Source: Acidobacteriota bacterium
GTDB lineage: Bacteria; Acidobacteriota; UBA6911; JACQSX01
NCBI GenBank assembly: GCA_016211105.1
Contig: JACQSX010000050.1
Span: 59,347 to 123,346, forward strand
Direction: 5' to 3'
Length of the DNA stretch: 64,000 nt
Under the pieces are notes generated by a model. That model worked only from the letters and a program-made list of their open reading frames with translations. It was not told where the DNA came from and did no database searches. Position numbers and translations under genes: made by a program. Shown piece after piece: positions 34,872 to 63,855 of the stretch (positions are counted from its first letter, which is position 1; each line of letters starts with the position of its first letter).

Positions 34872-36035
34872 TCAACGAACTGCGACTCTCTCCGTCTTCT
34901 TTTGAAAAAGGTTTTCCAGAGCGTTTCCATGCAGCAACGCTCCGTTCCTGTCAGAAGAGCGAAGTTCTCTTATCTTGTTGTAAATGGTTTTCTCGCTGAT
35001 TCCCAGCCGTCGAGCAGCCTGAGATTTGTTTCCCCCGCATAAATCGAGGGTTCGCAGAATTGCCATCTGCGTAATCTCCGCAAGAGACAGCCCATCCAAT
35101 GAGTTGGCTTCGGCAATATCAGGCGCCGCGTGATTTAAAATCTCTGATGGAACGTCGTTGTAACGAATTGTGAAATCGGAGCAGAAGGCGGTCGAGCGCT
35201 CAAGGATATTTTCCAACTCTCGAACATTCCCTGGCCAGTCATACCGTAGAAGAGCCTCGAAGGCATCCTCGGCCACCAGAAAAGATTTACATCGACGGTA
35301 CTGAGAAATCCTTGTCAGAATGTAATCTACCAGGCTTGGAATGTCTTCTTTCCGGCTGCGTAGCGCTGGAATATGAAGCAGCAGAACATTCAATCGGAAA
35401 TAGAGATCTTCGCGGAAGCGTTTTTCTCTGCATAAGCCCTTCAGATCCTGGTTGGTGGCTGCAATGACGCGCACGTCGACTGAAATTGTTTTATTGCTCC
35501 CAAGGCGAGTGAAGGTTCGCTCTTGCAAGAAATTCAGTAGCTTCGGCTGAAGATCCAGCGGGAGGTCGCCTACCTCATCCAGAAAAAGAGTCCCCTGGTC
35601 GGCAATTTCAACCCTCCCCACGCGCTTTTCGTAAGCTCCCGTAAAGGCGCCCTTTTCATGCCCAAACAGCTCCGATTCAACCAGTTCGCTCGGCAGCCCG
35701 GTACAACTAACCGTGACGAAAGGTTGCTCTGCACGCGGTCCGCCAGAATGGATCATGCGCGCTACCAGTCCTTTGCCCACACCGCTCTCTCCAGTGATCA
35801 ATACCGTGGAATGCAGGGCCGACAATTTCTGGGCTAATCCCAGTATCTCCCTTGCAACTGGAGACTCACCAACGAAACCCGACTGCGAGGGAGAGAATTT
35901 GATTGCCTGGGACAAATACCCGTTTTCCCCTCCGAATTGGAAATGCCGATTGGAGGTTACTTCCGGTTCGTCTCCTCCCGCCGGCCTCCTGTAGCCCTCT
36001 ACCTGCCTGTGCACAACACCTGATGTGGCGGCCAT
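34872..36035 (-). CDS. sigma-54-dependent transcriptional activator (AAA+ domain, C-terminal Fis-type HTH; no receiver domain)
   Basis: Walker A GESGVGKG, GAFTGA, ESELFGHEKGAFTGA; HTH AARRLGISEKTIYNKIR; strong AGGAAGGAG RBS before ATG 36035. Confidence 0.85.
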   Translation of the reverse strand: MAATSGVVHRQVEGYRRPAGGDEPEVTSNRHFQFGGENGYLSQAIKFSPSQSGFVGESPVAREILGLAQKLSALHSTVLITGESGVGKGLVARMIHSGGPRAEQPFVTVSCTGLPSELVESELFGHEKGAFTGAYEKRVGRVEIADQGTLFLDEVGDLPLDLQPKLLNFLQERTFTRLGSNKTISVDVRVIAATNQDLKGLCREKRFREDLYFRLNVLLLHIPALRSRKEDIPSLVDYILTRISQYRRCKSFLVAEDAFEALLRYDWPGNVRELENILERSTAFCSDFTIRYNDVPSEILNHAAPDIAEANSLDGLSLAEITQMAILRTLDLCGGNKSQAARRLGISEKTIYNKIRELRSSDRNGALLHGNALENLFQKKTERVAVR

Positions 36036-36365
36036 CGCTTTCTCCTTCCTAATCAATTTCCAGAAAAGGAATAATCTGAGCTTAATCGCTTCGATTTCGC
36101 GCAATTATGGATCTTGGAAAGGGGCGAAAAAATCAGTGAAAATCGCTTTTTTTTGTGGGTGTTCGTCCTACAACTCGGCGCGGGATTTACCGGAGGTTCG
36201 TCACGGCGGCGACGCAAGAGCACATGCGGGTTGAGGCAACAGACCTTAGGCGCTTGCTGAGAAACCGAGGCTGTTGACTAGACAAGACACAATTTTCGGG
36301 CGCTCACTACCGCTCGCGCCTCGGATTTTCAAAGCAAATATCATCACATTTCTCAATCTGGATAC

Positions 36366-36998
36366 TTAACTTACCAGCCCTCGTTTCATCGCGTAGTGGG
36401 TCAATTCGGCATTGTTCTTCATTCTCATCTTTTCCAAAATCCGGGTCCGATAGGAACTGATGGTCTTTACACTCAGTGCCAGTTCTACGGCAATTTGGGA
36501 CACGGTCTTGCCTGATGCGATCATGCAGAAAACCTGATACTCACGATCGGATAGGATTTCATGTGGCAGTTTCTCAACATCAGGCTCCAGATAAAGGGCT
36601 AACTCCTCGGCAACCGACGGGCTGATATATTTCCCGCCCTTTACCACTTTTCTAATCGCTTCCACCAATTGCTGGGGAGCGCTTTCCTTGGTGAGATATC
36701 CCGCCGCGCCTGCCTTGAGCACCCTTACGGCGTATTGATCCTCTGGATGCATAGTCAATACCAGAATGGGGAGTTTTGGTCTCTCACTCCTTAACTCCCT
36801 TAACACATCCAGCCCACCCCGGCCCGGCATCGCGATATCCAACAGAACGACATCCCAGTGACTGCTGCGGACTCTATCCAGGACCTCCTGGCCATTACTT
36901 GCCTCTCCTGCCACGACCAAGTCTTTAGTTTCTGAGACAATTTGTTTCAAGCCTTCGCGAACCACCGCATGGTCGTCCGCCACGAGAATCTTGATCAT
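36366..36998 (-). CDS. response regulator, NarL/FixJ (LuxR-type HTH) family
   Basis: Receiver domain ([13 protein letters not shown]...[11 protein letters not shown]) and LuxR HTH; 4-nt overlap with upstream kinase gene. Confidence 0.9.
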
Positions 36999-39157
36999 GC
37001 GCGCCCTCCGACTTTCTCAGAACCGTTAACAGGGATCCGCACCGTGACTCGGGTTCCTTTGTCCGGAATGCCCCGAATCGTTAACTCGCCTCCCCAAACC
37101 AGCGCCCGCTCTCGCATGCTCAAAAGTCCAAACGACCTCGAACCGAAATCTCGATCTAGTACAATACCCTTGCCGTTATCTGTGACTTCCAGCACCAAGT
37201 CGCCTTCCTGTAATTTTAAGCCGATCTCCACAGTCGTTGCATTTGCATGGCGGACTACATTGGTCATCGCTTCCTGAAATATGCGGAAGATATCCGTGGA
37301 ACGATCCCGATCTAAAATAATCTCCTCAGGATCGAGAGTCAGCTTACATTCAAGACCAGTCGTCCCTTCCAATTCCTTCGCCTTCCACTCTATGGCGGCT
37401 GACAGGCCCAGGTCATCCAGCACCGCTGGTCTTAAATCGGCTGTAATCCTTCGCACGGATCCGATCGTATGGTCCACCAGTTTGCACATCGACGTGGTCT
37501 TCTCCAACAGCGCTTTCTGACTCGACAACCTCGCTTGCAACCAAGACAGATCCATCTTGAGGATTGTCAACGCCTGGCCCAACTCATCATGGATCATCCT
37601 GGCTGCTTCGGCCCTCTCCTCTTCTCGCACCGACTGCAGATGTTTGGCAAGGCGCCGCAGTTGCGTGCGCGAATCCTTCAGTTGCCGTTCCCGGCGCTTC
37701 AGACGCGTGATGTCTTGTCCAAAAGCAATGACTCCAATGGGTTGATCTGCGGAGTCCAGCAATCGACTCGAATTCCACAACAGCACCTGGAGTTTTCCCT
37801 GCCGTGTTCGGATCGGGTTCTCCAAACCCGTGGTCGGCTCTCCCGCCAGTACCTTCGCTATGTCAGCGGCTACGCCATCCCGGTGCTCTTCGGGCACAAA
37901 TAGTTTGAGATAGCTTTTCCCAAAAACTTCTTCCCGCTTCCAACCATAAAGGTCCTCAGCCGCTCTATTCCACTCAACAATGCGATGATCCGGCGAGAGC
38001 CAGACAAACACGCTCGCTGCGGTATGAATGATCGTCTGCAGCCGTTGTTCTCTTTCTCGCAGAGCGTCCGCAAAACGCTTCTGCTCCGTGATGTCCGTTC
38101 CGGAGCTGAGAGTGCCGATAATGTTTCCCTTTTCATTGGTCAAAATCGTGTTGTGCCATGCAATGAGTCGCTCTTCCCCAGATCCTGTCACAATGGTATT
38201 TTCCAGGTACTCCACCGGGTCTACGTCGCCGGCGATGAGCGACTTAAACGTAGCCCTCACTTCTTCCCTATTTTTTGTGGGATGGCAGAGCTCAAACCAG
38301 TTCTTGCCGATAACGTCTTCTGCTTCATACTCGAGAATACGGCATCCTGCCCGATTGATTAGGGTCACTTTTCCCTCTGTGTCGACCACCACGAGCACGA
38401 CCTCAGCGATGTCGAGATATTTCTTCGCTCTGTCTCGCTCCTCCTCCACCTCCTGAATCAGTCGCTTACGCTCGCTAACGTCGCGGATTGCGGTGATAAT
38501 GAATACTCCTTCCTCGGTATGCAGAGGGCTGAGACTGATTTCGACCGGAAACTCGCTGCCATCCTTACACAAACCATAGAGGTCCAATCCCGGGCCCATC
38601 GGCCGCAGATGGGGGTCACCGAGGTAGCTTTTTAGATACTGCGCATGTTTGCGGCGAAGGCGTTCCGGTACCAAAATTTCAATCGCCGATCCCAACAATT
38701 CCTGGCGGGGGTACCCAAACAACTTTTCTGTCTGAAAGTTCACCAGCGAGATCTTGCCTTCCTTGTTGATCATGATCTTCGCATCAGGTGCGGATTCCAC
38801 CAGTTGTCGAAATTTTGCTTCCCTCTTCAATACCGCCTCTTCCAATCGCTTGCGGTGCAGCGCCAGGATCGCTGTGACCCAAACCGCCAGCAGCGCGAAA
38901 AAATGATCGACGAATCCTTCCCACAAACCACCTCCTGCGTGAGAGTACGGGATCGCAAGAATGATCAGGCTGCTGCAGCCGGCACCCAACATTAGTGTGT
39001 AGCGCCTCCCCGGCAACCACAAAGACATGAGAACCACAACTACATACAGCACGCCGACAGCCAGCGATGGAAAAGCGAGATCGATTTCGAAGATCGTAAT
39101 TGCCGACAAACCGGCGATGATAAGCGCCCATCCAATGGCGTCTGTGGTTTCCTTCAT
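36995..39157 (-). CDS. membrane-anchored multi-PAS sensor histidine kinase (HisKA_3/HATPase_c)
   Basis: N-terminal TM helices, several PAS-like segments, [16 protein letters not shown]-box, C-terminal ATPase. Confidence 0.9.
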
Positions 39158-39665: not shown

Positions 39666-40001
39666 CCTCTCTCTCCTAACGTTTCGAAGCGGTCAACAAA
39701 TCAGCGATGGTACTACCGAGTTGGACTCGCAGAGAAACAAAACATAGCAATGGGATCGTCAAAAAGTTACATCTCATTCTCATTCTTCCATCGGTTTCAA
39801 AGCAGCCTCACTGGCCACCGACTCGGCACGGTAGGCGATCATCCCTGAGTCCGCAGCAAGAACGGTGCCAAAGAACTCCAAATTTCAGGTAGATTCAGAT
39901 AGAAGCGGATACACTACCTCCGGTACGGCCTGAGCCGTGGCGTTCCCATAATGAATTGCGAGCGGCCCAAGCGCGATCTATTCTCTTTGCAGGAGGCTGC
40001 T

Positions 40002-48348: not shown

Positions 48349-49038
48349 ATGAAGTCTCGCATCTTGCTGATCGAAGACGAGCCGGGTCTGGTATTGACTT
48401 TGAAGGATCGGCTGGCTCAGGAAAGCTATACAGTGGAGGCCGTCTCGGACGGCGAAGCCGGTCTGGCGCGCGCCACGAAGGAACTCTATGACCTGATCAT
48501 TTTGGACGTGATGCTGCCGTCCAAAAATGGCTTCGACGTATGCCGGGACCTTCGGCAGCGCGGCATCGCTACGCCTATCCTTATGCTGACGGCGCGCGGT
48601 CAGGTTGTTGACAAGGTCCTGGGATTGAAACTTGGAGCGGATGATTATCTCAGCAAACCATTCGAAATGATTGAGCTGCAAGCGCGGATGGAAGCGCTTC
48701 TCAGACGCGCGCCTGCCCTGGCTAAGTCGTCCCAAGAGATCTACCAGTTTGGCGACATCCGTGTTGATTTTCTCAGTGCCGAAGTGACCCGAAACGGAAG
48801 GAAGCTGGAACTTGCTGCAAGAGAATTTCAACTGCTGCGCTATTTCATCGAGCATCGGGGCATTGCGCTGTCACGAGATAAACTTCTGGACGAAGTCTGG
48901 GGCTACAACGCGACGCCCTCCACTCGCACCGTCGATGTCCACGTGGCTTGGCTGAGACAAAAGATTGAACCGAATCCTAGCCATCCCCAATTCCTACTGA
49001 CCGTACACCGTCTCGGTTATAAGTTCATCGGCTCATGA
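48349..49038 (+). CDS. response regulator, OmpR/PhoB family (winged-helix)
   Basis: Receiver domain ILLIEDEP...LDVMLP plus winged-helix C-terminus. Confidence 0.9.
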   Translation: MKSRILLIEDEPGLVLTLKDRLAQESYTVEAVSDGEAGLARATKELYDLIILDVMLPSKNGFDVCRDLRQRGIATPILMLTARGQVVDKVLGLKLGADDYLSKPFEMIELQARMEALLRRAPALAKSSQEIYQFGDIRVDFLSAEVTRNGRKLELAAREFQLLRYFIEHRGIALSRDKLLDEVWGYNATPSTRTVDVHVAWLRQKIEPNPSHPQFLLTVHRLGYKFIGS

Positions 49039-50971: not shown

Positions 50972-53572
50972 ATGCATACGGCAAAGTTGCTAGGGTTGGT
51001 CATCATCTCTGTTTTCTTTTTGGCGCCGCTGACGGCGCAAGGCAACTATGCCTCCTTGGGGTCCACCGCTGGTACATCCGCCGCAGCAATGTCACCAGAG
51101 CGGCAGTTTGCCCCTGCTGCGCCCCACGCCGCGCCCTCGACCGGCACCTTGTTCGGTCAAACGCTCCCGCCAACTGTGATTACGTCTTCGTGCACTGATA
51201 CTGCCAAGGACTCACAACTTTCTGTCGAGAACGCTACCGAGCAACAGGGCAGGATCCACAAGTCGATCTATAAGCCGATGTGTTTCCCAAATTATTACTT
51301 CAAGAGCGAGCACTATGAGGGTATGTACTTGGAAAACGGCAGACCGCTACCTTGGATGGGACGAACCTGTGGTCACTTTGACCTCCTGGTTGTTTTCATT
51401 GATACGCCGTCCAACCGCCAGCGCCTTTTAGATAACAACAGTCCTCTGATCCCCCGCTCAGTGAAAGACCAGATTGCTGCCGGCCAAGTTAAGGCCGGCC
51501 TGGAAATGTTATTCAACACCATGGAGCTGGATCGCATCGCAACGGGAGTGGGATTGAATATGGGAATCGAGCAATTTGCGTTGAACCAGCGCCTGGCCCG
51601 AGCTCTTTCCTTTACCTTCACGGCCGCCGTCACCCAACGTCCAAGAAGTGACTTTGAACAAGGAGCAACTGCCGCCGGTAACGAGCTTGGATTCCCGAGA
51701 TATGACGCGGTCGTGATTCTCGATAATCTTGGAGGTCCGTCCGGTCTCGGCATCCAGCGCTGGCCGGGCGGCCGGGCGGGAAATATCGATTCGAATCCTC
51801 GCCCGCTGTTCTATGGCAAGAACGGCACGTTTTACCTGTTCGTTGATCCCTTGCGCCTCACGCCTGGACTGTTCGGAAACGAACTGCTGAGACGTAATGT
51901 CCCTCAGATGCCGTCCGAATACCTCATCGGGGAAGAGAAGCTTGTCCCGGTCGACGGGTTTTTCAACGACGAGACCCCAGTCATAAACCCCCGCACCGGG
52001 GAAAACTTGGAGCCATTGACGCGAGCGCGTGAGGGGAAGTTGCACCCAGGCCAGTACCTTTCCGGATTTTTGGACGTCGACGGAGACCGCGTCATCGACT
52101 GCATCGATCCTGAGATCACGCCAACGCCGGACAATGTGGATGCGGATTTCCTCCCGGATCGATTCGACCCCGATTTGAATTTTGATCATCGACCATTTTT
52201 CTGGGTTTATTCTGCCGCGCCGCTGAACCAGAAAACGGAGTTTGCCCAGTTTGCCAATGGCGCCAACTTTGCTTCCTCGATCGTTCTCACCAATCCTTCA
52301 CGGACGGAGACGGCAACTGGGTTGCTCAGCTTCCATGACGACTCGGGACTGCTGCTGCCGACATCGATCAACGGAAAGGCCCCGGCAAGCACCCTTCAGT
52401 TTTTAATCCCGCCTCTTGGGAGCGCGACGTTTACAACCGATGGCACTGGCAACTTGGTTTCAGGTTCGACCCGCGTCGCCAGCAACGTTCCAGTGGCGGG
52501 CGTGGTGAGGTTTTCCTCTCCCGGCTTGGGTATCGCGGGCGTGGGTGAAAGCATTCCCCTGGCCGCCTTCATGACGCCGGCAGTGCGCGACCTCGGCAGG
52601 AAATTAAACACAGGGGTGGCGATCTCCAATACGCTTGAAGCCATTGTGGAGCTGTTGCTGTCGCTTCGAATGCTAGACGGCAACGAAGTGACCGGCGGTA
52701 CGGCCACGGTGACTCTGGCCGGTAACGGGCACTTGGCCAAATTTATCGACGAATTGTTTCCAGGCGCCGATACGAGCAACTTCCAGGGCACGCTGGTGGT
52801 CACTGTTAAGACAACAGGAGGCAAGGTGGCTGCAACAGCGATTCAACTCGGCGCCTCCGCAGGAGAATTCACGACCTTGCCTGTAGTTCCAGTTGATCCA
52901 GCGCCAACAACAAGGGATTTGTTCTTTGCCCATTTTGGCGACGGCTTAAATATCACTTCGTCCTTCTTTTTCACGAACCCTCTGGGCGCAACAACCAGCG
53001 GTGAACTGGGCTTCTTTGACAATGATGGCAACCGTCTGTCAGTTTCTGCTGGGGGGCAGCCTGCGCTGGACCGTGTGCCTTTCAACATCCAGTCCAGCGG
53101 CGGATTCATTTTCAATACCAATGGCCAGGGGAGTTTGGTTTCCGGATCGGCAAGGACCAGCGCAAGCGGCGCCATTGGAGGAGTCTTGCGGTTTGCTTTG
53201 CCCGGTCTTGGGATTGCAGGAGTGGGCGCGGGCACTCCAACCCAGGCATTCATGATTCCGGTGACGAGAAGCGCTGCGAAGAAGTTAAGCACCGGTGTGG
53301 CGATCGCCTCTGTTGGCGCAGAGGTAAGCGTGACATTGACGCTCAGACGGTCCAATGCGCTGGTGGTTGCTGGAGGCCAGGCCGGATTGCAATTGAAGAC
53401 AAACGGCCACACTGCCAAGTTCATCGAGGAACTCTTTCCCGGTGCTGACACTGCAGAATTTGAAGGAACTCTTACGGCGACAGCGGAGGGAGGCAACGTC
53501 GTTGGTGTTGCAATTCAACTTGGATCGAAGCCGGGAGAGTTTACAACCTTGCCGGTAACGGCCCTCAGGTGA
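50972..53572 (+). CDS. secreted protein with unknown N-terminal domain and two tandem copies of a shared ~190-aa C-terminal domain
   Basis: Signal peptide [24 protein letters not shown]; two repeats each ending ...[13 protein letters not shown]; GGAGG RBS. Confidence 0.75.
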
Positions 53573-53618
53573 ACTGCCGTTTGATCTTTTCATTCATCCA
53601 GCGGTAAGGAGGTGCACG

Positions 53619-55277
53619 ATGACGGTTGGAAAAACCGCAGCTCTCTCTTTTTTGTGTCTGTTCGCGACCTCGCCAACGCCGATTTGCGGTCAGGAGGTAA
53701 CGCAGTATCTGCCGCAGATAGCCGACGGGGGAGGAGCGATCACAACGTTTTTTACAGTGAACCAGGCGGAGACAGCAGTCACTGTGACCATTGACGCGTT
53801 TTCTCCCGACGCGTCGCCTATGTCGGTGTTGAGTACAGGCAGTTCGGTGACATTTACACTGCCAATCGGAGGTTCCGCCTTTGTTAGAACATTAGGGTCG
53901 TTGGGCGGCTTTTCTCGCGCCGGTTTTGCCCGAGTTCGCTCCAGCGGGATGACGGGTGTGGCCGCAATCTTCCAGTTTTTTGATGCTGGTGGAAATCTCC
54001 TGTCAGAAGCGGGCGTGTTGCCGTCGCCACTAGTAAAAGGGTTTTCCATAACGGCGGCCTTCAGTCCTGCCCAAGGAGTGAACACCGGCTTGGCGGTAGC
54101 GAGTCCTGTGAGCGACTCGAATTTGACGCTCTCGTTGATGAACCCGGACGGCAGCGTGCGCAGGACGGCCAGTTTGAGTGTGCCGGCCGGAGGACAGAGG
54201 GCGCGGTTTCTAAGCGAGACGACTCCGCCGCTGTTTACCGGATTGGATGTGATCTATGGCGCAGTCAAAATCACCAGCGATGTCCCGGTTGCTCCGGTGA
54301 CACTGCGGACGGATGGAACGCAGTTGACCACCGTGCCGGTGATTACTCCCACGCTTGAGGCACAGGGACCGTCCGGGCCTGCGGGTCCGCAAGGTCCAAC
54401 AGGCCCCACTGGACCTCAGGGGCCTGCAGGTCCGCCGGGTGCCCCCGGGCCCGCAGGTCCAGCAGGCGTCAGCGGCCCACAGGGGCCAGCAGGCCCAACC
54501 GGCGCCACCGGGTCCGCAGGTCCAACCGGCGCGACCGGGCCTGCAGGAACCTTTTCACCCGGTGCCAGTATCGAGGGTTCGACCGCCTCGGCGCTGATTA
54601 CCTTCACCAACAGTGGAACCGGCTCAAGTGTTTATGGTTTGCACAGCAGCTCCAGCGGAACTGAGCCTGGCCTGCGAGGGGAAACTTACTCAACCCAGGC
54701 AAGTGCGGCTGGGATGATTGGAAGGGTAAGAGCTGCCTCGCCGGGTGGCTTCTCTGCTGGAGTCCGAGGAATTAATGAGGGGACCGGCAGCCAGGGTATT
54801 GGAGTCTGGGGATCGCAAAACGGTAGCGGCTGGGGACTCTACGGTACCTCAGTTTCTGGTAGGGGAGTCTTTGGGACGTCTGATGCCGGAGTCGGCGTGT
54901 ATGGTACGTCTGAGTCCTCCTTCGGAGTTGTTGGGAAAACGTCCACCGGGTCCGGTGTGCTGGCAGAAAGTAGCAGCCCAGACGGGAGCGCCCTTGAAAT
55001 CAGAAACGGCGCCATCAAAGTGTCAGGCAATCCCAAACCGGCCTTTGTTCACACCAGCAAAGGGAAGAGTTTGAGAACGTACATTGACCATCCGCTGACC
55101 AATGGAAAACCGAATGCCATTCTGATCGTCACGCCTGTTGGCGGCAACTACACAGCACGAGCTGTTGGGGTGGAATACGATAGTGACTCTAATTACCAGC
55201 AATGGACAATCTATAACCTCGATTTTACAGACCAGGCGGTTGGCCAGCGATTCAACGTCCTTGTTATTCAACAGTGA
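53619..55277 (+). CDS. secreted collagen-like (G-X-Y) repeat protein with N-terminal copy of the shared surface domain
   Basis: ~20 Gly-X-Y triplets ([25 protein letters not shown]...); signal peptide; AAGGAGG RBS. Confidence 0.8.
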
Positions 55278-55278
55278 C

Positions 55279-58200
55279 TTATTGCAGCCGCGTTACCGGC
55301 AGTGTTGTGAACTGGCCGGCTTGGCTGCCCAATTGAATCGCGGTCGCCGCGATGCCGCCCCCTTCGGCGGTCACCGTCAGCGTCCCTTCAAAATTGTTGG
55401 TGTCCGCACTGGGGAAAAGCTCGTCAATAAAACGGGCCACGTGACCACCTGCTTTCAGCGCTATCGTCGTTGTGCCTCCCGCGACCGGTTGTCCGCTGGC
55501 ATTACGCAATACCAGGTGCAACGTTACTGCTCTGCCCGTCGCGTTGACCGCAACGCCCGTGTTGATCCCGGTTTCCCGGCTGCGACGAACTGGCGAGATG
55601 AATCCGTTGAAGCTACCGCCTCCGCCGACGCCGGCAATCCCGATGCCCGGCAACGTGAAGCGTAGCACTCCCCCCACGACTCCTTCCGTGACATTTGCTC
55701 GAGCCGAGCCAGTGGTGACTGCCCCCAGACCGTCGGTCGTGAAAACGGCCCCGCCCTGAGGAGCGATGTCAAACGGAATATCGCTGGCTGAGGCCCCGCC
55801 GTTGACAGAGATCGGTAGACGGTTACCGTCATCGTTGAGAAAAGCCAGCTCCCCTCGGGCCCGCTCCGTGGCCGAGGGATTAGTCAAAAACAGAGAGGAC
55901 GAGAGATTGCCGCCATTGCCGAGGTGAGCAAAATAGACCGTCCCGCCGGCGGGCTCTGGAGAAATCGGGGTGACTGGGAGCGTAGTAAATTCACCAGGCC
56001 TTCCACCCACTTGAATCGCCGTTGCCGCGATTGGGCTGCCCGTGACCGAGAGCGTTCCTTGGAAATCTCCCAGGCCCGGAAATAGTTCCTGAATAAAGCG
56101 GGCCACATGGCCATCGACTGCGATGGGTAGTTGTCCTTGGCGAAAAGCGGCGCCATTGAGACCCTTGAGTGTCAGCCTCAGATTGGTTGCGGGCCCAAAA
56201 TTGAAAACCGCGATTCCCGTGCTGACTCCCTGGGCACTGTTTCTAGTAATTGGCGTGATAAAGGAATCTACAAGCTGACTCTCTCCTACTCCGGCAATTC
56301 CCAATCCGGGAGCTGAAAAACGAACCACTCCGCCCAGCGGCACATTGGAGAGCACCTGGGCTGAGCCTGTCACGAGAGTCCCTATTCCATCGCTGTTGAA
56401 CGTGACGCTGCCCAGCGGCGGGATAGTAAAGTCGACGCCGTTGTCGACAGGCCCCCCATTCAACGCCAGCGGCAACGGTTTACCATCATCATCGGAGAAA
56501 TCGATGCCGCCTTCGGCCGTTGTGGTTGCAGAGGAATTCGTCAGATCTACAGAAGAGACAAACTGCGACCCGTTGCCCAACTGGGCAAACAGGAACAAGT
56601 GTAGGATCTTCTCCACATTAATGATGCTGTAGGCGCCCCCCGTGACCGGATCGGTAACCAACGCGGAAGCATTTCGTTGCTCTCCAATCTCACCAGCCAC
56701 ATCTGTTCCCGTGTTGCCCTTTTCTCCCGAACCTTTTGAAAGAACACTGGCGCTAAAACCGCCGTTTAACACAACCCTGTCTGTCCCACCTCCGCCATCG
56801 ATGTTCTCCCTCTCCCCGGGCGGCACGTCTCCAGCCCGGAGGATAATTGTGTCATCACCGTTGCCGCCGAGCATGTTGTCTCTGCCGGTTCCACCAAGCA
56901 AGGTGTCGTGGCCCCCGCGGCCGTCTAAAGTGTCATTTGCAGGCCGACCATCCAGAAAGTCATTCCCTTCGCCTCCGACCAGATTGTCAATCCCGGGGCC
57001 GCCAACCAAAACCTGGTTCGGGACACCCGGGAGCGTGGTACTGGTGGTCGTCTGCGTGCGGGTTGTCGTGGTTACGGTGACGAATGTGCTGGTAGCCGTC
57101 CGGGTTGTGGACGTAGCGGTGCCAGTGGGAGAAGTGCCGGTTGTTGAGGTGGCAGTGCCCGTCACGGACGTTGCAGTTCCTGTTGTTGAAGGACTCGTCG
57201 TGGAAGTAGCGCTGCCGGTCGTGGTAGTGGCAGTAGATGACGTTCCGCTTCCTGTGGTTGAAGTACCCGTCGAAGAGGTGGGTGGGATCGTTGTAGTTGT
57301 GGTTATCGTTGTCGTGCCCGTGGTCGACGTCCCCGTAGCGGTAGTCGAGGAGCTTGTCAGGGTAGCAGTCGCCGTCGTGGTGGTCACCGTCCCCGTCGTC
57401 GTGCCAGTTGTCGTCGTCGTCGTGGACACGCTGAGTTGTTGATTTCCGAAATCCACACCCAAAGCAATCGCATCGCTCGCGGTTGCGACGTCCGGGTTTG
57501 GCGTGGTCTGTTTCCAGCCGGGTTGGAGAACCTCTCGGACCTTGAATGTCCCCGCACTTAAATTGACGAAGTTGTAATTTCCGCCTGAGTCTGTAAGCTG
57601 CGAGGCCTCTCCACTGTCCAAGATTCCGTTGCCGTTATCATCCAGGAAGATTCTCCAGCCTCCGATTCCCGGCTCGCCTGCATCCCTGACACCATCGCCG
57701 TCGAGATCTTCGAATTTCGTCCCCCTGATCGAAGCAAGCTTAAAGTTGCCGAAGTTAACGCCTGATCGATCGATACCACTGCTAGATGCGAAGTCGCTCG
57801 GGTCTGAAGTCGTCTGTTTCCAGCCGGCTTGCAGCACCTCTCGCACCCTAAGTGTTCCTGGGCCCAGATTACCGAAAGTGTAGTTTCCGCTTGCGTCCGT
57901 AAGCTGCGAAGCCTCTCCGCTGTCCAAGGTTCCATTGAGATTATCGTCCAGAAAGATCCTCCAGCCCGAAAGCCCCGGCTCGCCTGTGTCTTTGACCCCA
58001 TCGCCGTCCAGATCTTCGAATTTTGTTCCACTGATTGTGATTAGCTTGAAGTTGCCGAAATCCGCTCCGGAAACATTTTGGCCGCTCACCGTCGTGATAT
58101 TGCGATCCCCGGCGGTCTGTTTCCAGCCAGGCGTCGGAACCAGCCACTCTCGGAGCCTGCAAGTTCCGGGACCCACAGGGGTGGGTGCACCTCCAAGACT

Positions 58201-58836
58201 GTAACTCCCATTCGGAAGGGTTGCAACCACTGGCTCTCCCACATCGCGTGTTCCATTATTGTCGTCGTCGCAAAAAATCGTGAAACCCTGCAGGCCCGGC
58301 TCGCCGGAATCCTTCACGCCGTCGCCTTCGGTGTCATCAAACTTCGTTCCGCTGATTGTCACATACTTAAAGTTGCCAAAATCCACACCTGACCGGGAGC
58401 CTCCGGTCGTATTGACCGTTCGTTCGGGGGTAGTCTGCGTCCAGCCGGACTGAACGACTTCGCGGACGTTGTAAATGGCCTCAGTCACCGAAAGCGAATA
58501 ATTTCCGCTGGCATCGCTGGTTGTCGAAGTCTCTCCCGAGTCGAGCCTCCCGTCGTTGTCGAGATCGACGTAGACTGTCCAGCCTTGCAGTCCCGACTCC
58601 CCAGGCTCTTTGACGCCGTCGCCATCTTTGTCCTCAAATACCTGTCCGCTGATTGTCCTGGGGGCGGCCCCGAATTTATCGTCAGAGGTCCGTTTCTCAA
58701 ATCCCTGCGCGGCGACCCCCTCTACAGTTCCCGCGACTGCAGAACCCAGTATGACCATGAGTGCCGCCAATACAAACGAACGCGGGCAGAAACATTCAAG
58801 CTGTGTGCGTGAGGTCGGTACTTGCTCTTTTTTCAT
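55279..58836 (-). CDS. large surface adhesin-like protein: SdrD-B/Cna-B-like repeats, Thr-rich linker, RTX-type Ca-binding repeats, two copies of shared C-terminal domain
   Basis: Repeated ISGTKFEDLDGDGV...GW units; ~130-aa Thr/Ser-rich tract; GGxGxDxLxGG nonapeptides; C-terminus ...AIQLGSQAGQFTTLPVTRLQ; start set at MKKEQ (58836). Confidence 0.8.
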   Translation of the reverse strand: MKKEQVPTSRTQLECFCPRSFVLAALMVILGSAVAGTVEGVAAQGFEKRTSDDKFGAAPRTISGQVFEDKDGDGVKEPGESGLQGWTVYVDLDNDGRLDSGETSTTSDASGNYSLSVTEAIYNVREVVQSGWTQTTPERTVNTTGGSRSGVDFGNFKYVTISGTKFDDTEGDGVKDSGEPGLQGFTIFCDDDNNGTRDVGEPVVATLPNGSYSLGGAPTPVGPGTCRLREWLVPTPGWKQTAGDRNITTVSGQNVSGADFGNFKLITISGTKFEDLDGDGVKDTGEPGLSGWRIFLDDNLNGTLDSGEASQLTDASGNYTFGNLGPGTLRVREVLQAGWKQTTSDPSDFASSSGIDRSGVNFGNFKLASIRGTKFEDLDGDGVRDAGEPGIGGWRIFLDDNGNGILDSGEASQLTDSGGNYNFVNLSAGTFKVREVLQPGWKQTTPNPDVATASDAIALGVDFGNQQLSVSTTTTTTGTTTGTVTTTTATATLTSSSTTATGTSTTGTTTITTTTTIPPTSSTGTSTTGSGTSSTATTTTGSATSTTSPSTTGTATSVTGTATSTTGTSPTGTATSTTRTATSTFVTVTTTTRTQTTTSTTLPGVPNQVLVGGPGIDNLVGGEGNDFLDGRPANDTLDGRGGHDTLLGGTGRDNMLGGNGDDTIILRAGDVPPGERENIDGGGGTDRVVLNGGFSASVLSKGSGEKGNTGTDVAGEIGEQRNASALVTDPVTGGAYSIINVEKILHLFLFAQLGNGSQFVSSVDLTNSSATTTAEGGIDFSDDDGKPLPLALNGGPVDNGVDFTIPPLGSVTFNSDGIGTLVTGSAQVLSNVPLGGVVRFSAPGLGIAGVGESQLVDSFITPITRNSAQGVSTGIAVFNFGPATNLRLTLKGLNGAAFRQGQLPIAVDGHVARFIQELFPGLGDFQGTLSVTGSPIAATAIQVGGRPGEFTTLPVTPISPEPAGGTVYFAHLGNGGNLSSSLFLTNPSATERARGELAFLNDDGNRLPISVNGGASASDIPFDIAPQGGAVFTTDGLGAVTTGSARANVTEGVVGGVLRFTLPGIGIAGVGGGGSFNGFISPVRRSRETGINTGVAVNATGRAVTLHLVLRNASGQPVAGGTTTIALKAGGHVARFIDELFPSADTNNFEGTLTVTAEGGGIAATAIQLGSQAGQFTTLPVTRLQ

Positions 58837-58919
58837 CTTTAATTTTCCCGATCCCGGAGGCGGCACTCTCCGGCAAATCGAGGTGTCATTTGGCGCGACG
58901 CCATCGCCTGCTCTATCCG

Positions 58920-58994
58920 TGAGGGTGAGACGGATCTCATTTAGTGAGGGTGAGACGGATCTCATTTAGTGAGGGTGAGACGGATTTCATTTAC
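58920..58994. repeat. three tandem direct copies of a 25-bp repeat (TGAGGGTGAGACGGATCTCATTTAG) upstream of the adhesin gene
   Basis: Copies at 58920-58944, 58945-58969 (identical) and 58970-58994 (2 mismatches), 84-158 bp upstream of start codon 58836 on the minus strand. Confidence 0.7.
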
Positions 58995-59424
58995 TTGAGA
59001 CCTGAGAAAATGGATCGAGTACTAGCCAGAAAAAAAATCTCATGCAGGCGATACGGGGAGGCAATAACAAATATACTAGCCATCGGGGGTGCTCCTCTCA
59101 CTCCTTCCGACTTTTATAGACTCGATGGACCAATTGACGCCCGAGTAGTTGAACCGGGTCATTAGTCTGGACGGATGGGACATATGCTACCCGAATGGGT
59201 CAATGGAAAGCTAATAGTAATTTTAATTTCTGATGAATCGGACGAGAAAGTCAGATATTTGAGAGCCTAGCCTGGTTTTTTTGGGCCGGTCCTTTCGCGA
59301 GAGCAATCGTTGACTTCGTGCCAGGATCTCTTCTCCTTGACCTTTTTGGGTGAGAATAGGTCTACTCTTGCTTCAGGTTCAAACGGAAGCCTTGAATCCC
59401 AACTTTTGAAAAGGAGGAGTGGAG

Positions 59425-60051
59425 ATGAAACAACAATATCACGGACATTGGGGAATCGCTCTGGTCCTGTTGTCTCTATACATTTGCGCCGCCAACGTTT
59501 ATGCCCAGGAAAACGGTGAGCTCTACCGATGGGATATCGCAAGCTTGCAACCACCTATCCTGAGACCGGGTGGATCGGCGTCAGCGGCGGCAGCTAACGG
59601 TTGGAAGATAATCTTCACTGGTAGCGGGACCTTTCGCATTGATCAGCCACCTCGGATAGAGGGTCCCAGGATTGGAAGCGGCGTCACCGGCGGGGGAACG
59701 TGGGCAGTGCAAGATCCGCAAGGTAATGTGACACCTTGCGGCACATACGACGTCGTCGAGGTAATTAGTTTTCGTTTGGCTCCCGGGACAGCTCTAGGAA
59801 CCGTTACTCAGGATCTGATTGGCGCCAGGGAGGATCAACGCGCCGGTGTCGCTGTCCTGCGCGTTCTTTTTTCAGACGGCGGCAGAGGAATTCTCATTCT
59901 TTCCTCACGCTTAGGGGGAACGCCGGACTTCGTGGTCGAGGGAATCAGCGCAACGGACGATTTTATAAATTACTTCAATGTCTCGCCGGTCGTGGGCAGT
60001 GTAGACGCTAACCATATCAGCTTCCACATCCTTCGTAACAAAAACCAATAG
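59425..60051 (+). CDS. secreted hypothetical protein
   Basis: AAGGAGGAG RBS 5 nt before ATG; signal peptide HGHWGIALVLLSLYICAANVYAQ. Confidence 0.6.
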   Translation: MKQQYHGHWGIALVLLSLYICAANVYAQENGELYRWDIASLQPPILRPGGSASAAAANGWKIIFTGSGTFRIDQPPRIEGPRIGSGVTGGGTWAVQDPQGNVTPCGTYDVVEVISFRLAPGTALGTVTQDLIGAREDQRAGVAVLRVLFSDGGRGILILSSRLGGTPDFVVEGISATDDFINYFNVSPVVGSVDANHISFHILRNKNQ

Positions 60052-60181
60052 GACGCGGATTATTCATTAGCAAAACATTTCAGCGCTCCACTCGGTGCTA
60101 CGGGTTATCTGGAGACTGGCAAGGACAAAAAATATCTTGACCAAATCGCATTCGAGAATATACTTACTGGTCGGTATAATA

Positions 60182-60811
60182 ATGAGGCCGTCGCAACCTC
60201 GTCAGACTCGCTCGCCCCGGGAAGTTCACCGTTCCAGCCGGGAGGCGATTCATATCGCAGCCACCGCTCTTTTCGCGGAGCGGGGTTATGCAGCCACATC
60301 GATAAGAGAAATCTGCCACCGGGCAGGTATCACCAAGCCCGCGCTTTACTACCATTTCGGCAACAAGGAGCACCTCTATCAAGGACTGATCCTGGATGCT
60401 TTCAACGAGTACCGTAAGGAACTGTTGTTGGCTTCCCGGCAAAGCAGGACGACTGCCGTGAAACTCGTGGATGTGTTGGAAGCGATGTTTGCTTTTGTGC
60501 GAAAGAATCCCGAGCTTTCCCGCCTTGCGTTTCGAATGATCCTTGCGCCCGAAAAAGGTTCGCCGGTAATCGAGTACGATGAATTATGCAAGTTCGACGC
60601 TCGCTTTATTGAAGGAATCGTGGCGGAGGGCATCCGAAAAGGGGAGATGAGAGGGAGTCCTCGGGAAATCGCCGACGCCCTGACCGGGATTGTCACAGTG
60701 CACATTATCGATTTTCTGGTCGCCGGCAAGCCGGTTTTGCGCCGCTCGCTTGCCGAGGGGGCCGTGGACCTACTGCTGCACGGTTGTATGCCCGCCTCTA
60801 CCGATCGGTAG
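60182..60811 (+). CDS. TetR/AcrR family transcriptional regulator
   Basis: N-terminal HTH ATSIREICHRAGITKPALYYHFGNKEHLY; directly upstream of efflux genes; TATAAT 1 nt before ATG. Confidence 0.85.
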   Translation: MRPSQPRQTRSPREVHRSSREAIHIAATALFAERGYAATSIREICHRAGITKPALYYHFGNKEHLYQGLILDAFNEYRKELLLASRQSRTTAVKLVDVLEAMFAFVRKNPELSRLAFRMILAPEKGSPVIEYDELCKFDARFIEGIVAEGIRKGEMRGSPREIADALTGIVTVHIIDFLVAGKPVLRRSLAEGAVDLLLHGCMPASTDR

Positions 60812-63418: not shown

Positions 63419-63496
63419 AAATCATGACTACGCAGTTTGCTGGCCGCCACTCAAATGGCTCCTTTGCGGCGCTATGCGCGTCAGGAAGCGGACCCT

Positions 63497-63578
63497 CAAA
63501 TGCGGAATTCGGAATGCGGATGGCGAATTTCGGTGGACTTTTTACATTCCGCATTCCGAAATCCGAAATCCGCATTGC
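63497..63578. other. imperfect inverted repeat / predicted hairpin between MFP and RND genes
   Basis: GGAATGCGGA (63511-63520) pairs with TCCGCATTCC (63549-63558), extended by imperfect AAATGCGGAATTCGG / CCGAAATCCGCATTG arms; no T-tract. Confidence 0.4.
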
Positions 63579-63598
63579 AGTTGTCCGCTTGCTTCGTA

Positions 63599-63749
63599 CC
63601 TCGATTCATAAATACGATAACGTTTGCTGCGAGCGCGATAGCGCCGATTTCGCGAAGCGACGACGATGTCCCCGCATCGACTCCTCCTCGCTCCTTGATC
63701 TCGCCTCGCAAGCCCCATTAGCAAACGTTACCGTATTTATGAATCGAGG
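63599..63749. repeat. MITE-like repeat element, copy B (same family as 7375-7641, opposite orientation, shorter)
   Basis: Terminal inverted repeats CCTCGATTCATAAATACGATAACGTTTGC ... GCAAACGTTACCGTATTTATGAATCGAGG; lies between MFP and RND pump genes. Confidence 0.6.
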
Positions 63750-63855
63750 TACTTACGCGCGCGGCTCAGAATTTTTCACACCTTCTGACGGTGGCAGCTT
63801 CGCCGCGCGAGGTCTCTGCGACGAGCGTTCCTTGAAAAGCCGCCAGTAAAAATTT

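Follow-up and report, generated by a model that had tools for sequence, protein, structure and literature searches.

The window analysed here, the whole stretch of 64,000 nucleotides, comes from an uncultured, free-living groundwater Acidobacterium, and its sequence was taken from a metagenome-assembled genome (MAG). At positions 58920-58994 it carries three head-to-tail copies of a 25-bp unit, TGAGGGTGAGACGGATCTCATTTAG, located upstream of a gene for a large secreted repeat protein. The array is non-coding, its unit occurs nowhere else in the window, and no link was found to a nearby response regulator, an iteron system or a known element. We take it to be neither a conserved multi-site operator nor an iteron set and, as far as the 64-kb window goes, it is no dispersed element either. 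With somewhat better than even confidence, we regard it as a young, lineage-specific minisatellite that would have, at most, a modulatory effect in cis.

The Repeat Array and Its Assembly

Units 1 (58920-58944) and 2 (58945-58969) are identical, including the linker, while unit 3 (58970-58994) differs from them by two substitutions, 58986 C>T and 58994 G>C, a pattern that is the signature of a recent duplication. The coordinates and the copy description given in an earlier note on this DNA were correct. Tandem Repeats Finder reported the array at 58919-58993, with a period of 25, 3.0 copies, 98% matches and a score of 143, and any 25-mer match was absent from all of the 100 dinucleotide shuffles examined, which places the array far beyond chance.

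An artefact would take one of two forms: an error or collapse during the short-read assembly of the MAG, or coding sequence that belongs to an N-terminally longer protein. Several circumstances invite the suspicion: the source is a metagenome-assembled genome, a mechanically called open reading frame (ORF) starting at 58965 passes through the repeats, and a Logan assembly contig from run SRR12113401 breaks within the array. That contig, however, is identical base for base to positions 58956-60202 of the window, and reproduces copy 3, both of its variant bases, its junction with copy 2, and the right flank. This independent agreement indicates that the repeat is real. The contig starts within copy 2, and neither confirms nor contradicts the count of three copies, but a break at this point is the expected product of a k=31 de Bruijn graph, which loops where a stretch of 67 nt is exactly 25-bp periodic. 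Such a stretch should also be shorter than ordinary reads and the large k-mers used by assemblers. The coding variant fares no better: no ribosome-binding site precedes the extension, the signal peptide would be displaced by it, and the NCBI record does not include it. Taken together, an artefactual origin in either form is very improbable.

The Downstream Gene and Its Start

The gene below the array (55279-58836, minus strand) specifies a secreted repeat protein of 1185 aa with SdrD B-like domains, RTX nonapeptide repeats and a Sec-type signal peptide, and is referred to here as the adhesin gene. Its translation from ATG 58836 was 100% identical, end to end, to NCBI entry HY644_15395 (1185 aa), which belongs to an 'Acidobacteria bacterium' MAG and lies on a contig of 127 kb. 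No close homologue of the 1185-aa protein was found, and the next-best relatives of this SdrD-B/RTX protein shared 43-55% identity over about 35% of its length.

The array begins 84 bp (58920-58836 = 84) and ends 158 bp (58994-58836 = 158) upstream of this ATG, just as had been claimed, and its description as non-coding DNA upstream of the largest ORF of the window was also borne out. A model reading of the start had been dismissed in the same note, namely the N-terminal extension from ATG 58965, and rightly so in view of the NCBI start at 58836, the position of the signal peptide and the composition of the extension. The hydrophobic core of the signal peptide lies about 22-36 residues past the methionine of ATG 58836, and a start at 58965 would shift the signal peptide some 43 residues inward. 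No purine-rich ribosome-binding site precedes ATG 58965, and the extension displays no GC3 bias. Each repeat unit has one ATG, because the triplet forms part of the repeat sequence, and one of the three, ATG 58965 on the minus strand within unit 2, is in frame with the downstream gene. As the evidence stands, the array is useful mainly as a marker locus and as a warning for gene-start calling, since the repeat supplies a spurious in-frame ATG.

Some further features of this gene and its surroundings were recorded. Any change in copy number would switch which of the repeat ATGs is in frame. The out-of-frame ATG of unit 1 opens an upstream ORF of 34 codons (window 58940-58841, minus strand) that ends 4 nt before ATG 58836; it has no ribosome-binding site and is probably meaningless. 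Within the 1185-aa gene itself, a tandem repeat of 306 bp spans 57506-58059 and a (GTC)n tract spans 57368-57423. The gene is a member of a cluster of three large secreted or repeat proteins (50972-58836), within which it is convergent; of the other two members, one (866 aa) gave no Pfam match, and the other (552 aa) combines collagen triple-helix repeats with DUF7452. On the other side of the array, an ORF of 51 aa (59010-59165) was considered as a hidden gene and rejected, its GC3 being 0.35 compared with 0.54-0.69 in real genes; it gave no Pfam match, and no homologue was found among 1.84 billion representative proteins.

The Intergenic Region and Its Neighbors

The array sits in a divergent intergenic region of 588 bp. 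The GC content of positions 58950-59099 is 0.43-0.47, compared with about 0.55-0.60 in the flanking genes, and the flank of the array at 58995-59100, which includes an A8 tract (59031-59038), is moderately AT-rich. The divergent gene (59425-60051, plus strand) has a strong Shine-Dalgarno sequence and specifies a secreted protein of 208 aa without a Pfam match; the array is 431-505 bp upstream of it. This protein corresponds to HY644_15400, the locus tag directly after HY644_15395, and the consecutive numbering suggests that NCBI annotated nothing between the two genes. The exact 208-aa protein is also encoded on the Logan contig from SRR12113401. Its homologues show at most 46% identity, and they adjoin genes resembling those for vanadium chloroperoxidases, not adhesins. 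Further along the plus strand lie a TetR gene and then an OEP-MFP-RND efflux operon.

An observation of a different kind was made in this efflux operon. The gap between the MFP (HlyD-type) and RND genes (63419-63855) is 437 bp, compared with 163-228 bp in related operons (L146, L143), and holds two large inverted repeats of hairpin type. The first (63499-63525 / 63550-63576) consists of 7-bp AATGCGG units and their complement, and the second (63596-63666 / 63682-63752) has arms of 71 nt with 73% complementarity. This gap may represent a MITE- or REP-like insertion inside the operon.

Uniqueness of the Repeat Unit

Searches for further copies of the unit, near and far, returned only the array itself. 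With up to 3 mismatches allowed on both strands, the 25-mer had no match in the rest of the 64-kb window. Nor did its 16-mer core or the dyad that it contains, again with mismatches allowed, give a relevant match there. A blastn-short comparison of the intergenic region with the window produced self-matches only. Exact 21- and 19-mers of the unit were absent from 185,579 GTDB species representatives, from the JGI metagenome contigs and from IMG/VR, and the whole 588-bp intergenic region had no blastn match in plasmid or phage collections. No orthologous locus was found, the adhesin and the 208-aa gene being without close homologues and the homologues of the latter lying in different gene contexts.

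These results bear on the classes of element to which such a repeat could belong. Dispersed repeats of the REP/BIME and MITE kinds are recognized by numerous genomic copies or by terminal inverted repeats accompanied by a target-site duplication, and no further copy of the unit was present within the 64-kb window of this one MAG. A MITE was also considered on account of a 9-bp inverted repeat (58903/59044) and a 9-bp direct repeat (59020/59074), and rejected, as both were at chance level in a region of 800 bp, for which we estimate about one of each by chance. The units abut without spacers, so the array is not a CRISPR. An epigenetic switch based on Dam methylation of GATC sites was likewise discarded: GATC is over-represented throughout the window (6.3 per kb), and at least 4 sites per 200 bp is not unusual.

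Response Regulators and Iterons

The earlier note took the array for direct-repeat sites bound either by a response regulator of the OmpR or NarL type or, as iterons, by a replication initiator. In favor of this are the three direct repeats beside an AT-richer stretch and the presence of two-component regulators in the window. Boxes of the OmpR/PhoB and NarL types consist of direct half-sites about one helical turn (10-11 bp) apart, and usually have their cognate regulator nearby; iterons show a phasing of about 22 bp and occur in many copies. All of these systems, like the array, present several direct repeats near an AT-richer stretch. The period of the array is 25 bp, not the half-site spacing of about 10-11 bp typical of the OmpR and NarL families, and its internal TGAG sub-repeats are 6 bp apart. 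Nor are the regulators adjacent, as had been stated. Their distance from the array is 10 kb for the OmpR-type regulator (48349-49038) and 22 kb for the NarL-type regulator (36366-36998), and each lies beside its own kinase gene, a histidine kinase in the first case and a PAS kinase in the second.

The iteron proposal met similar difficulties. Pfam scans of the window ORFs of at least 150 aa detected no Rep, Par or other replication gene, so that the array has neither an initiator gene nor an origin context, its 25-bp period is off the phasing of iterons, the unit is unique, and the intergenic region is without similarity to plasmid or phage records. A role as direct-repeat sites for either kind of protein is therefore scarcely credible.

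The Promoter and the 5' Leader

The label of promoter region, which the earlier note had attached to the array, found no clear support. A sigma-70-like promoter is missing from the stretch that separates the repeats from the ATG, the best candidate being located on the other side, upstream of the array. A site of at least 9/12 was not present anywhere in the intergenic region, and the sole match returned by the promoter tool was within coding sequence. By inspection, the 84 bp between the array and the ATG contain no TAnnnT (-10-like) hexamer. The best sigma-70-like pair, GTGAGA-17-TAGTAT (59101-59073, minus strand, which is that of the adhesin gene), is weak, at 8/12. With the best candidate in this position, the repeats would fall in the 5' leader, and the array may be either upstream promoter DNA or a portion of a leader some 230 nt long. 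A sigma-54 promoter or enhancer was also sought and dismissed, TGGCAC-N5-TTGC being without a match in the intergenic region.

If transcribed, the repeats could act as RNA within a long leader of the adhesin mRNA, where three small hairpins or sheer length would influence stability, processing or translation, in the manner of hmw in Haemophilus influenzae, where a repeat tract in the leader acts via an RNA element (PMC12721329). The promoter evidence is compatible with this, both in the lack of a TAnnnT hexamer below the array and in the position of the best pair above it, and the lineage is seen to use canonical TTGACA-N16-TATACT promoters. Nevertheless, the candidate promoter is weak, the hairpin of the unit amounts to only 5 bp (-3.6 kcal/mol), and the folding z-scores were -1.7 for the leader and -2.2 for the array, with no Rfam match to any structured RNA. 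The z-scores of the array ranged from -1.1 to -2.2, which is marginal at best. An RNA-level function of this kind is accordingly quite improbable.

Two other potential structures were noticed in the leader. A 10-nt perfect complementarity (58759-58768 / 58859-58868) connects the leader of the adhesin mRNA with codons of about 23-26 and, if paired, would enclose the ribosome-binding site and the start codon within a loop of 90 nt. There is also a 6-bp GC hairpin, CCGGAG..CTCCGG (58854-58873), 18-37 nt upstream of the ATG. Both may be due to chance. Elsewhere in the window, a perfect sigma-54 consensus, TGGCACCGTTCTTGCT, occurs at 39855-39870 on the minus strand, upstream of a region with a small unannotated ORF and a pair consisting of a PAS histidine kinase and a NarL-type regulator (36366-39157), and a gene for a sigma-54 enhancer-binding protein is located at 34872-36104.

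Dyads and Candidate Operators

Every unit carries a dyad, TGAGA-cgga-TCTCA, at 58926-58939 in unit 1, at 58951-58964 in unit 2 and, in a degraded form (TTTCA), at 58976-58989 in unit 3, where it is broken by the substitution 58986 C>T. The dyads are 25 bp apart from center to center. The array could thus be an operator, in which each dyad would bind one dimer of a candidate helix-turn-helix regulator and so repress or activate one or both of the divergent genes. The putative dimers would sit upstream of the adhesin gene at distances of 96, 121 and 146 bp from its ATG, and a fourth, weak site would lie close to the divergent gene. Dimeric helix-turn-helix regulators elsewhere do use such dyads at the same center-to-center spacing. 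However, a perfect 5-bp dyad was present in 11-16% of random 25-mers from the window, which makes that of the array statistically unremarkable. Moreover, the center of the array dyad is asymmetric, the linkers are identical, and one of the only two substitutions destroys the third dyad. Selection on binding cores would leave conserved cores and diverged linkers, unlike the array.

A solitary, loosely related site, GGGTGAGAatagGTCTAC, lies at 59348-59365 on the plus strand, 60-77 bp upstream of the divergent 208-aa gene, and a solitary site of the form GGGTGAGA..TCTAC within the intergenic region of the array would be in keeping with a shared motif and an operator. On the two strands of the window taken together, GGGTGAGA was found just two times outside the array (post hoc p ~0.02), which is weak evidence, since it was noticed after the fact.

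Paired dyads with the same half-sites proved to be common in other organisms. A scan of the GTDB genomes for two dyads 6-16 bp apart gave at least 120 matches, compared with about 12 expected by chance according to our rough estimate, and a scan of metagenomes with the spacer fixed at 11 bp gave 21 loci. Most of the matches listed were two perfect palindromes of 14 bp (TGAGAGCGCTCTCA, TGAGACCGGTCTCA, TGAGAACGTTCTCA and others), among which the modal spacer was 11 bp, equivalent to 25 bp from center to center and therefore in the same phase as the array. For one of these palindromes, TGAGAGCGCTCTCA, the literature gives a description as a CelR-like site found in pairs (PMC3377646). In all six of the actinobacterial loci examined, a LacI-family gene was found beside the pair.

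The paired operators of LacI-family (CelR-like) regulators, such as the double TGAGAGCGCTCTCA (PMC3377646), therefore have TGAGA/TCTCA half-sites and a site of 14 bp in common with the array, and often the same 25-bp center-to-center spacing. They differ from it in being full palindromes with a symmetric center (mostly a central CG) and unrelated linkers, and in having the LacI gene adjacent. In the core of the array, TGAGAC-GG-ATCTCA, complementarity is missing at positions 6/9 and 7/8; the linkers match one another exactly, and there is no LacI gene in the window. With the symmetric center, the non-conserved linkers and the adjacent regulator gene all missing and the half-sites alone alike, assignment to the LacI-family pairs was rejected; such likeness as there is arises from the way in which the search pattern was built. 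As far as sequence comparison goes, these loci illustrate that an architecture of this kind can be an operator array, yet they count against the membership of the present one.

The nearby TetR regulator (60179-60811) is no better a candidate, as it has a different conserved operator, ATACTTACYGGTMRGTAT, which is unrelated to the repeat unit, and an assignment of the array to TetR was rejected. Within the window this operator was found only at 60160-60177, at the promoter of the TetR gene itself, where it overlaps the -10 element. TetR orthologues of 62-74% identity have the same TetR-OEP-MFP-RND operon but different upstream neighbors, and common to their upstream regions is TTGACa-N16-TATACTTACCGGTcGGTATG, with the operator overlapping a canonical promoter. 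All of this leaves an operator function for the array rather unlikely.

The searches also brought to light features of other loci. The 14-bp TGAGA/TCTCA palindrome pairs (loci L002-L142) are widespread beside LacI-family genes in Microbacteriaceae, Streptomyces and related Actinomycetota, and a distinct class, a double TGAGAATATTCTCA, was found upstream of DUF134 genes in Bacteroidota (e.g., L017, L079). In the window itself, positions 60137-60178 comprise a conserved TTGACC-N16-TATACT promoter overlapping a near-palindrome, ATACTTACTGGTCGGTAT. This promoter/operator stops a single base short of ATG 60179, the likely start of TetR, and the transcript may thus lack a leader; the GTG at 60095, from which the mechanically called TetR ORF starts, is probably wrong.

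Discussion

The reading we favor is that of a young minisatellite, in which a 25-bp non-coding stretch was tripled at its original site, replication slippage or unequal exchange being the most likely cause. The most probable effect of this event would be passive and cis-acting: the start codon is set 50 bp further from the AT-rich segment upstream, and a weak TGAGA-N4-TCTCA dyad is tripled. If functional, the array would tune the expression of the downstream gene by length or by site dosage, either as DNA or in a long 5' leader. Copy number could plausibly shift by slippage, but much more slowly than at the classical simple-sequence contingency loci, whose tracts should slip far more often than a 25-bp unit in three copies.

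A stronger form of the same idea is that the array serves as an expression rheostat of the minisatellite type, where gain or loss of units, each with one operator-like dyad, is predicted to alter the loading of regulator dimers or the length of the leader upstream of the gene for a giant Ca2+-binding surface protein. We give this only a slim chance. If true, it would represent heritable, reversible variation in surface adhesion outside the world of pathogens, where such switches are known, and should copy number both vary and tune expression, repeat-mediated control of surface proteins would be extended to environmental Acidobacteria, with an unusually long unit. On the present evidence, it is one orphan repeat of low copy number in intergenic DNA.

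The expression of surface-protein genes can be modulated by tandem repeats that lie upstream of them (PMC8262952, PMC12721329, PMC3899988). In the hmw1A and hmw2A genes of H. influenzae, a tract of 7-bp repeats, (ATCTTTC)n, lies between promoters P2 and P1, and its copy number sets the level of expression (PMC8262952, PMC12721329). The hmw tract and the array are alike in being head-to-tail, non-coding repeats about 100-200 bp upstream of a gene for a large surface protein, and in both cases the tract may lie in the transcribed leader. They differ in scale and setting: the 7-bp unit of hmw is present 13-24 times or more, the tract has been shown to be hypervariable, and it belongs to a host-adapted pathogen, whereas the array has three copies of a 25-bp unit and belongs to a free-living groundwater Acidobacterium. 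With contingency repeats of the simple-sequence (SSR) type in general, it shares the position of non-coding tandem repeats upstream of a gene for a secreted protein, here of the SdrD-B/RTX kind, but not the short unit (1-9 bp) in many copies, the array being 25 bp x 3.0.

A second comparison is offered by the Spy1336/R28-Spy1337 region of Streptococcus pyogenes M28 (PMC7098570), which is likewise a divergent intergenic region beside a repeat-rich surface adhesin gene. There, the element is a homopolymer of 9-10 T residues that varies in length, and the divergent partner is an AraC-type regulator (PMC7098570); in the case of the array, the divergent partner is a secreted protein without a Pfam match.

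Intergenic minisatellites or VNTRs (PMC3899988) have a unit of tens of bp, a low copy number, near-identical copies and a local origin, as does the array, which consists of head-to-tail, near-identical units within the range of about 10-100 bp and was found at a single locus, its unit being absent from the rest of the window and, as exact 19-21-mers, from three public collections. This is the class that fits best, with the qualification that a VNTR is itself defined by polymorphism and the array is known from one MAG and, in part, from one Logan contig. The closest known kinds are thus the intergenic VNTRs, together with repeats in the promoters or leaders of adhesin genes, for which hmw in H. 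influenzae is an example.
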